Below are positions 33,001 to 34,897 of a DNA stretch of 64,000 bases, piece by piece. The position numbers were made by a program. This stretch comes from Escherichia coli (GTDB taxonomy: Bacteria > Pseudomonadota > Gammaproteobacteria > Enterobacterales > Enterobacteriaceae), in assembly GCF_017348835.2 (NCBI RefSeq), contig NZ_CP071375.1; one strand, 5' to 3'. Positions within the stretch are counted from its first letter, which is position 1; each line of letters opens with the position of its first letter.

Positions 33001-34897
33001 ATTTCGTCCGCCCGTTTCCTGATATGCTTTTGCCATCCGCTACAAGGAGGTCAGATGGGTATCATAGCGCAAATTGACATCCTCCACGCCCTGAAGGACG
33101 TGGATCCCTGCTACGTTCAGGCTGTCGCCTGAATCATTTCGGTGGGTTCCTGCTTCAACGGGCGGCCTGACTGCACCATCCCTCCACAGGCAAGAACGGC
33201 GTGCCCCGCCGCTAAAATGTTACGAGCGCCGTTTACATCGGCGTTCGCTGTATATCCACATACCTGGCATCTGAATTTACTTTGTGACAGGCGATTTTCT
33301 TTCGCTGTATGACCACAGCACGCGCAACGCTGGCTTGTGTACGCTGGCGGAACAGCAAGCACCTGACCGCCACGCCAGAGCTGCTTGTACGCAAGCTGGC
33401 GGCGCATTTCATACCAGCCCTGATCCAGTATCGAACGGTTTAAACCTGATTTTGCCCGGACATTGCGCCCCGGCTGGCTGACCGTACCCGCTGCTGACTT
33501 TGACATGTTGCTGACCTTCAAATCCTCAATGACTATCATTGCGTGGTTTTTGCTGACGGTCGTTGTGACTTTGTGAAGGTAGTCCCTGCGGATATTTGCG
33601 GTACAGGAATGCAGTCGCTGTATTTTGCGTTTCTGCTTCTGCCAGTTATTGCTGAATTTGACCTTGCGGCTTAACTGTCGCTGAAGTCTCGCCAGCTTCT
33701 TCTGGTTTTTCTGAAAACTGTTTACAGGCTCAAAGACTGTGCCATCTGACAGCGTGGCGAGTTTAGCCACGCCAGCATCCAGCCCGACCATTGATGCTGA
33801 AGGGTGAACCGGAGTTGATACTTCACTTTCTGTCTGAATACTGATGTACCACTTACCGCAGGACTGGCTGACAGTGACATTTTTCACAACTCCCGTGACC
33901 TGACGGCTGTTCCGGTAGCGCATCCAGCCCAGTTTCGGCAGAAAAATACGGCTGTTTTCCTGATCGAGCTTAACGCCCTGCGGGTAGCGGAATGCATCAT
34001 TCTGTCCCCGCTTTTTGAATCGGGGAAAAGCAGCCCGATTCTGGAAGAAGTTTTTGTAAGCCCGCTCAAGGTCTTTCAGTGACTGTTGCAATGGCTGTGA
34101 GGGCGAATCTTTAAGCCATTGCGTTTCAGTGGCGTTTTTCCACTCAACCAGCCAGGAAGCCATTTTCCCATAAGGGATGTATTTATTACCGGCCTCATGA
34201 TTCTCATTCTGAAGCGCCAGAGCACGATTGAAAACGAAACGACATGCGCCTGCGAAGCGCCTCATTTCACACTCCTGTTGATCACCTGGTCTTAACTGGA
34301 ATTTAAATGCCTGTAGTCGTTTCACAGGCCAAATGATACTTTGGTCTGTGAAAAAAGAAACCGATATCCGGCGTGGAAGGCATTGTGTTTTCCTGATGCA
34401 TGTTCACCTGGTCTTTGTCACCAAATACCGACGCCAGATTTTTGACCATGACGCGACAGAAAAACTACGCACTTACTTTTCAAATGTATGTGCTGATTTT
34501 GAAGCTGAACTGGTTGAAATGGATGGCGAACCAGATCACGTCCATTTGTTAATTAACTATCCTCCCAAACTGGCGATATCCAGTCTGGTAAACAGCCTCA
34601 AAGGCGTATCGGGTAGGTGACTGCGACGAGATCGACCAGATATTGCAGTCAGGTATTACTACAAAGGCGTTTTGTGGAGTCCTGGCTATTTTGCCAGTAG
34701 CTGCGGAGGTGCGCCAATATCCGTCATCCGCCAATACATTGAACAACAGCAAACACCTGGTCAGGTGGAAAACCGCGCCTTATATCCCCGCCCTGAAGGA
34801 CGGGGTTTTACGGCGCACCGGATAAATTTGGTTATGCGCCGTCAGCCGTGCTAAAGAATACGGACCAGCACCCAACGGATGCCAGTCCACACAATTA

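Follow-up and report, generated by a model that had tools for sequence, protein, structure and literature searches.

IS608 of Helicobacter pylori, the model element for the mechanism of Y1 'peel and paste' transposition, has imperfect subterminal hairpins on one strand and a right end that finishes in TCAA, and it inserts 3' of a TTAC-like motif without target duplication. In ISDra2 and the IS605-family elements of G. stearothermophilus, TnpB has a D-E-D triad and two CxxC motifs, the guide-RNA scaffold is formed by the 3' end of tnpB and the right end and is followed by a guide derived from the flank, and the transposon-adjacent motif (TAM) is the transposase target motif, which is TTGAT in ISDra2. 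TnpB with its omega RNA cuts the TAM-plus-flank sites left by excision, whereupon recombinational repair from the sister copy restores the element, and tnpA lies nearby for only about 25% of tnpB genes (Meers et al. preprint, 10.1101/2023.03.14.532601). Here, we analysed a 64,000-nucleotide stretch of an Escherichia coli chromosome (contig NZ_CP071375.1, hereafter the window) and found that positions 33074-34821 are an ordinary copy of the insertion sequence (IS) IS609, of the IS200/IS605 family, in which tnpA is broken while tnpB and its predicted guide-RNA scaffold are intact. We favour, with moderate confidence, a reading in which this is a non-autonomous IS609 copy with a history of flanking deletion and an idle TnpB nuclease of the retention type.

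The IS609 copies at the insQ locus of K-12 (ydcL-ydcO) and in O157:H7 (intact TnpA, WP_000604943.1) have their ends and hairpins in common with the window copy, as well as the divergent arrangement of the two genes, a 402-aa TnpB and a target of the TTAT type. The K-12 copy also has the premature TGA, and a CAG where tnpA usually stops. The window copy differs from these copies in its site in yidL and in the yidI-yidL deletion next to its right end. It shares the IS608 features listed above but prefers TTAT over TTAC and has a divergent tnpA. The triad, the CxxC motifs, the scaffold and the flank-derived guide are likewise in common with ISDra2 and the G. stearothermophilus elements; unlike in ISDra2, the TAM here is inferred to be TTTAT/TTAT, and tnpA is divergent from tnpB rather than co-directional.

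The limits of the element were set by comparison with an O157 strain that has the ancestral order yidH-yidI-yidJ-yidK-yidL-glvA. Homology to this arrangement ends at 33073 and starts again at 34822, leaving 1748 bp of foreign DNA that lies on the minus strand in the sense of tnpB (left end 34821, right end 33074). A sequence-only reading of the window had recognised an IS200/IS605 element with limits at 33085-34854; the family was right, and the limits are corrected both by the ancestral junctions and by the ends shared with other copies. Seven further chromosomal loci and one plasmid have copies with identical ends, the seven chromosomal copies being 97.8-99% identical in DNA to the window copy over the 1748 bp. 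The name IS609 comes from the O157:H7 copy (97.8% identity over 1748 bp), whose TnpA is called 'IS200/IS605-like element IS609 family transposase' by the Prokaryotic Genome Annotation Pipeline (PGAP). In 26 relatives from Citrobacter, Serratia, Morganella, Xenorhabdus, Klebsiella, Photorhabdus and others, similarity distal to tnpB always stops at ...GGAGGATGTCAA. Positions 32900-35000 are 100% identical to E. coli strain PE164, where PGAP names the tnpB product 'RNA-guided endonuclease InsQ/TnpB family protein', classes tnpA as a pseudogene ('internal stop') and places a 75-nt gene fragment that overlaps the glvA end. Among the 5426 complete E. coli genomes searched, to which all genome counts refer, IS609 sequence is present in about 4900-5000, at a median of 3 places per genome.

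Both ends of the element carry the same subterminal hairpin on the plus strand, as the sequence-only reading had noticed. The right-end hairpin is at 33084-33103 (CCACGCCCTGAAGGACGTGG read on the plus strand) and doubles as the last helix of the predicted guide-RNA scaffold; the left-end hairpin, from a hairpin search, is at 34786-34805 (CCCCGCCCTGAAGGACGGGG on the plus strand). The hairpin pattern occurs twice in the 64 kb window, each time on the plus strand, and in none of 100 shuffles. The element has no terminal inverted repeats: its two termini, CCGGTGCG... and ...GATGTCAA, do not form such a pair. Directly 5' of the left end, in the sense of tnpB, lies the pentanucleotide TTTAT (34822-34826, minus strand). 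Across eight independent insertion sites the left-end flank in this sense was TTTAT at five, CTTAT at two and TTTAC at one; the right end always finished in TCAA, the right-end flanks were unrelated, and target duplication was absent. These features mark the element as one of the single-strand 'peel and paste' type, like IS608, and they identify TTAT (TTAY) as the target and hence as the likely TAM.

Two further observations concern the ends. In relatives from Photorhabdus and Klebsiella pneumoniae the right-end hairpin region is longer and different (...CCCCCTCTTGAGTCACGAAGTGCGAAAGTGGGGG...), yet the terminal GGAGGATGTCAA is unchanged; the terminal 12 nt thus seem to be under stronger constraint than the hairpin. 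In addition, 49-nt matches to the left-end hairpin region only (window 34779-34827) were found in other genomes at unannotated places, on chromosomes and on small plasmids, in strains that otherwise do not have the left-end/yidL junction. These may be solo ends or miniature palindrome-associated elements (PATEs) that the IS609 TnpA could mobilise.

The transposase gene, of the Y1 HuH type, is a pseudogene. Divergent from tnpB, the plus-strand frame 34333-34854 contains a single in-frame TGA at 34618-34620, which separates the HuH motif (HVHLL) upstream from the catalytic-tyrosine motif (WSPGYFASS) downstream; read through the TGA, it scores 146 bits against NF033573 (IS200/IS605 transposase; cutoff 55). 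Intact IS609 TnpA has 143 aa and ends at a TAG equivalent to 34762-34764, giving tnpA a native 143-codon extent of 34333-34764 (plus strand). In the window, K-12 and several other copies this codon is CAG, and the frame therefore stays open to 34854. The premature TGA is at codon 96, which in intact copies is TTA (leucine) and not the tryptophan codon TGG that had been expected. The TTA to TGA change inactivates tnpA by removing the catalytic tyrosine.

The TGA allele, scored with a 41-mer centred on the codon, occurs at 3373 places in 2726 genomes, including K-12 and BL21, and the TTA allele at 4480 places in 2531 genomes, so that TGA makes up about 43% of scorable IS609 copies (3373/7853 places). 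At least three loci carry it, namely yidH-glvA, ydcL-ydcO and a site beside yedK. Its presence in 2726 genomes shows that the TGA is real and common and not a sequencing error, and the TAG described above shows that it is not the canonical TnpA end either, the two doubts that had been raised at the outset. At the yidH-glvA locus tnpA was broken in all nine sampled copies, by the TGA in five and by a 1-bp deletion in five, with both lesions in one. The sole other IS609 copy of PE164, at ydcL-ydcO (23157-24864 of the PE164 locus sequence), has a TAA at codon 76 and a 3' deletion. As both copies have a dead tnpA, no intact IS609 transposase remains on the PE164 chromosome, and the element would be mobile only if TnpA were supplied in trans. 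The TAA, which replaces a tyrosine codon, is the same lesion in copies at two loci (PE164 ydcL-ydcO and a DUF3251 locus), and combinations of lesions and single-nucleotide polymorphisms (SNPs) are mosaic among IS609 copies. This suggests recombination, or frequent gene conversion, between copies.

The start codons of tnpB (GTG, 34325, minus strand) and tnpA (ATG, 34333, plus strand) are 7 nt apart, and each gene's promoter must therefore sit within the coding sequence of the other. Decay from the right-end side was observed at yedK: in strain 2-1 the adjacent IS609 is without its right end and roughly the last 60 nt of tnpB, and in another strain only tnpA and a tnpB fragment are left.

The insQ-type tnpB gene (33117-34325, minus strand, GTG start) is an intact open reading frame of 402 aa for an RNA-guided RuvC nuclease. 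The protein scored 382 bits against NF040570 (RNA-guided endonuclease TnpB; cutoff 100) and aligned over its full length to the ISDra2 TnpB structures 8H1J and 8EXA (E = 4e-52). The alignment places the RuvC triad at D183, E267 and D363 and the zinc-finger cysteines at C334/C337 and C353/C356, all present, in agreement with the intact RuvC-like and zinc-finger regions of the sequence-only reading. The window protein has eight non-synonymous differences from the K-12-type copy at ydcO-ydcL. The K-12-type InsQ (ydcL-ydcO) carries C336Y within the first CxxC, a change absent from the window copy and from another ydcL-ydcO copy; we considered it as a zinc-ligand mutation and rejected this, as C336 is a middle residue of C334-x-x-C337. 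The literature on IS609/InsQ with TnpB yielded only one paper (PMC12781874), which names IS609 TnpB among purified proteins.

A guide RNA had been proposed to derive from the tnpB 3' end and the adjacent hairpin, and covariation supports this. We aligned the last 105 nt of tnpB and the 43-nt right end from 19 relatives in other genera; in the window these correspond to 33074-33221 (minus strand), the minimum extent tested. RNAalifold returned 40 pairs, and 14 of these show compensatory double changes. In this fold 97.7% of cells pair, compared to about 46% when partners were slid by 1-3 columns, and the slid controls had 3-5 double-change pairs compared to 14; none of 500 shuffles reached the observed values. 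Three of the covarying helices fall within the tnpB coding sequence. Many of the pairs are G-U, which would be A-C mismatches on the opposite strand, and the fold therefore belongs to the tnpB-sense RNA, as expected for an omega RNA. Helix 7, the right-end hairpin, has compensatory changes at four pairs; its covariation is ambiguous because the same helix is the DNA hairpin that TnpA would recognise. Collectively, these results support a conserved guide-RNA scaffold, predicted from aligned sequences, at the tnpB 3' end and right end. An Rfam scan of 30000-38000 found no family at its gathering score; sub-threshold matches on the tnpB strand at the tnpB 3' end, to HgcC (24 bits, gathering 50) and sot0042 (19 bits, gathering 88), are suggestive and are not evidence. 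By the rule of the family, the guide is placed directly 3' of TCAA. The predicted 16-nt guide is thus TTTGCGCTATGATACC (33058-33073, minus strand, read from 33073 down to 33058), which lies in the remnant of the yidI start. Its only match in the 64 kb window, to which this search was confined, is itself. In ancestral yidI the guide sequence is preceded by TTTAT.

The sequence-only reading had the element directly abutting yidH and glvA with yidI, yidJ, yidK and yidL missing. The loss of these genes is confirmed, and the ancestral arrangement excludes that they were never present in the lineage; the direct abutment did not hold, as two remnants lie in between. The first is 19 nt of the 5' end of yidI (33055-33073, plus strand, ATGGGTATCATAGCGCAAA), recognised by homology to ancestral yidI, and the second is 77 nt of the 3' end of yidL (34822-34898, plus strand), which, as in the ancestor, has a 4-nt overlap with the glvA stop. 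Counted by junction-specific queries, the junction between the left end and the yidL remnant next to glvA is present in 299 of the 5426 genomes (5.5%) and the window-type junction between the right end and the yidI remnant in 288. A count of 4306 genomes with at least 80% query coverage was rejected as a measure of the locus, as any full IS609 copy covers 84% of the query. About 11 genomes (e.g. strain N3) have the same IS with the same left-end junction but retain yidI and the final 159 nt of yidJ; in the N3 type, homology to yidJ runs to 4810 and the PGAP-annotated fragment to 4855.

In both the window type and the N3 type the deletion begins exactly at the right-end terminus, immediately after TCAA. 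In the window type, the flank now joined to the right end directly followed GATTTTAT in ancestral yidI; in the rarer N3 type it followed CAGTTAC in yidJ. Both are target-like motifs. Because the junction follows the target motif, the deletion was probably catalysed by TnpA, as far as the junctions indicate. In the proposed sequence of events, IS609 would have inserted on the minus strand, 3' of TTTAT in yidL, and a deletion anchored at the right-end TCAA would then have removed the 5' part of yidL, yidK, yidJ and yidI up to just 3' of a TTTAT at yidI codon 7. This could have happened directly, if the right end was cleaved and then joined to DNA that had been cut after a target motif further downstream, or, with the same result, by recombination with a second IS609 copy inserted at yidI. 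It follows from the junction that the ancestral yidI allele carries TTTAT together with a perfect match to the guide of the window copy. A bolder extension, which we consider doubtful, is that both right-end deletions (after TTTAT in yidI and GTTAC in yidJ) record a TnpA-catalysed 'pseudo-excision' that reprogrammed the guide against the undeleted allele. If so, the element would create a 4.7-kb host deletion and would police it against reversal by incoming ancestral DNA.

Other arrangements of the region were also observed. K-12 has yidI-yidL with a truncated glvG. In the ST131-type strain CU568-3 (B2-type), yidI, the whole glv operon and yidP are absent, yidJ is frameshifted, and yidL is followed by yidE; this arrangement is a third structural allele, found in roughly a quarter of genomes sampled. 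Beside the IS, positions 34895-37833 of the window hold a full-length 6-phospho-alpha-glucosidase gene, glvA (440 aa), with a single 1617-nt phosphotransferase system (PTS) gene upstream. In K-12 their places are taken by a truncated glvG pseudogene and a split glvB/glvC. The glv operon is therefore intact in the IS-bearing allele, despite the loss of yidI-yidL.

As to the present state of the element, TnpB would bind an omega RNA whose guide is the 16 nt past the right end, and would cut TTTAT followed by TTTGCGCTATGATACC, either at the donor joint after excision or in an incoming ancestral yidI allele. Such a cut would favour retention of the element via recombinational repair. Omega RNA expression and TAM- and guide-dependent cleavage by the window TnpB are proposed here by analogy with characterised relatives. 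With tnpA nearby for only about a quarter of tnpB genes, tnpB without tnpA is the norm for the family. Where no cognate TnpA is left to drive excision, as in the identical strain, the nuclease module is probably idle and not repurposed.

The strongest competing explanation, which we consider possible although unlikely, is that the copy is an inert fossil in which tnpB and the omega RNA are silent or inactive, the open frame of tnpB reflecting the youth of the copies and their homogenisation by gene conversion. Divergence among copies of only 1-2% and the mosaic of SNPs and lesions common to several loci are in line with this explanation, as is the PE164 chromosome, where no intact IS609 tnpA would provide excision for TnpB to counter. 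The distribution of lesions argues against it. Among 21 full-length copies, the 1209-nt tnpB was uninterrupted in all 21, whereas the much shorter tnpA (432 nt) was broken in 16, and the lesions are of at least three kinds. Compared between loci, the chromosomal copies have 35 synonymous and 37 non-synonymous tnpB variants, a ratio of non-synonymous to synonymous polymorphism (pN/pS) of about 0.30, not 1; the ratio is about 0.34 among nine copies at the yidH-glvA locus and about 0.15 relative to a 93%-identical plasmid copy. The catalytic residues, the zinc ligands and the covarying scaffold are also all kept.

Several points weigh against the reading that we favour, a non-autonomous copy with a deletion history and an idle nuclease. 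A simple insertion in yidL, with the right end joined to yidL, was found in 0 of the 5426 genomes, and the left end joined to yidI likewise in 0 of 5426. As neither intermediate was found, we do not choose between direct joining and second-copy recombination, and the route is inferred from the junction sequences only. The purifying-selection signal in tnpB is not assignable to the time after insertion, because variants are common to copies at other loci and are mosaic, which points to gene conversion. A consensus promoter scan found nothing above chance, with two promoter-like sites compared to 1.7 expected and no convincing sigma-70 site; the fossil explanation would account for this as well. 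The window TnpB departs from the consensus by a private G15D and at five more positions, and the nuclease activity and expression of this copy are themselves predictions.

A leaky stop would make the transposase attenuated rather than dead: the TGA is followed by C, UGA-C is a weak termination context in E. coli, and occasional readthrough would leave a weakly autonomous element. The abundance of the TGA allele, its occurrence at three or more loci, and a frame that is still open past the TGA in the window, K-12 and other copies would suit this idea. However, most TGA copies are the single fixed ydcL-ydcO insertion, and genomes with TGA have a median of one place compared to two for TTA. Spread to other loci can be explained by the gene conversion seen in the mosaics, an open 50-codon tail is expected by chance at 1-2% divergence, and the unrelated lesions in other copies suggest plain decay. 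We therefore regard readthrough as very improbable.

Least probable of all, and scarcely credible to us, is the suggestion of the sequence-only reading that TnpB was domesticated, in which case it would serve the host cell outside transposition, as a regulator or as a nuclease directed by a guide RNA: like TldRs (nuclease-dead TnpB-like repressors) it persists without a working transposase, tnpB outlasts tnpA at yidH-glvA and other fixed loci, and it shows a moderate signal of purifying selection, but TldRs have lost the RuvC site and gained new conserved gene associations, whereas the window TnpB has its RuvC triad, zinc finger and both transposon ends intact, the allele is in only 299 of 5426 genomes, the guide is adjacent flank as in any IS605-family element and matches nothing else in the 64 kb window, each locus has neighbours of its own, and neither an inactive RuvC nor a conserved non-transposon gene association with a host-target guide was found.

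The element is already known, being annotated in an identical public genome, and is a routine IS609 copy. The window copy therefore carries little weight beyond its annotation, and tnpB outliving tnpA is the majority state for the family. The analysis has useful by-products: base-exact ends for IS609, a TTAT/TTAC target that is likely the TAM, and an omega-RNA scaffold supported by covariation. In addition, nearly half of the IS609 copies in E. coli, K-12's among them, share one premature stop, and a yidI-yidL deletion allele with junctions that look transposase-made is carried by about 5% of E. coli.

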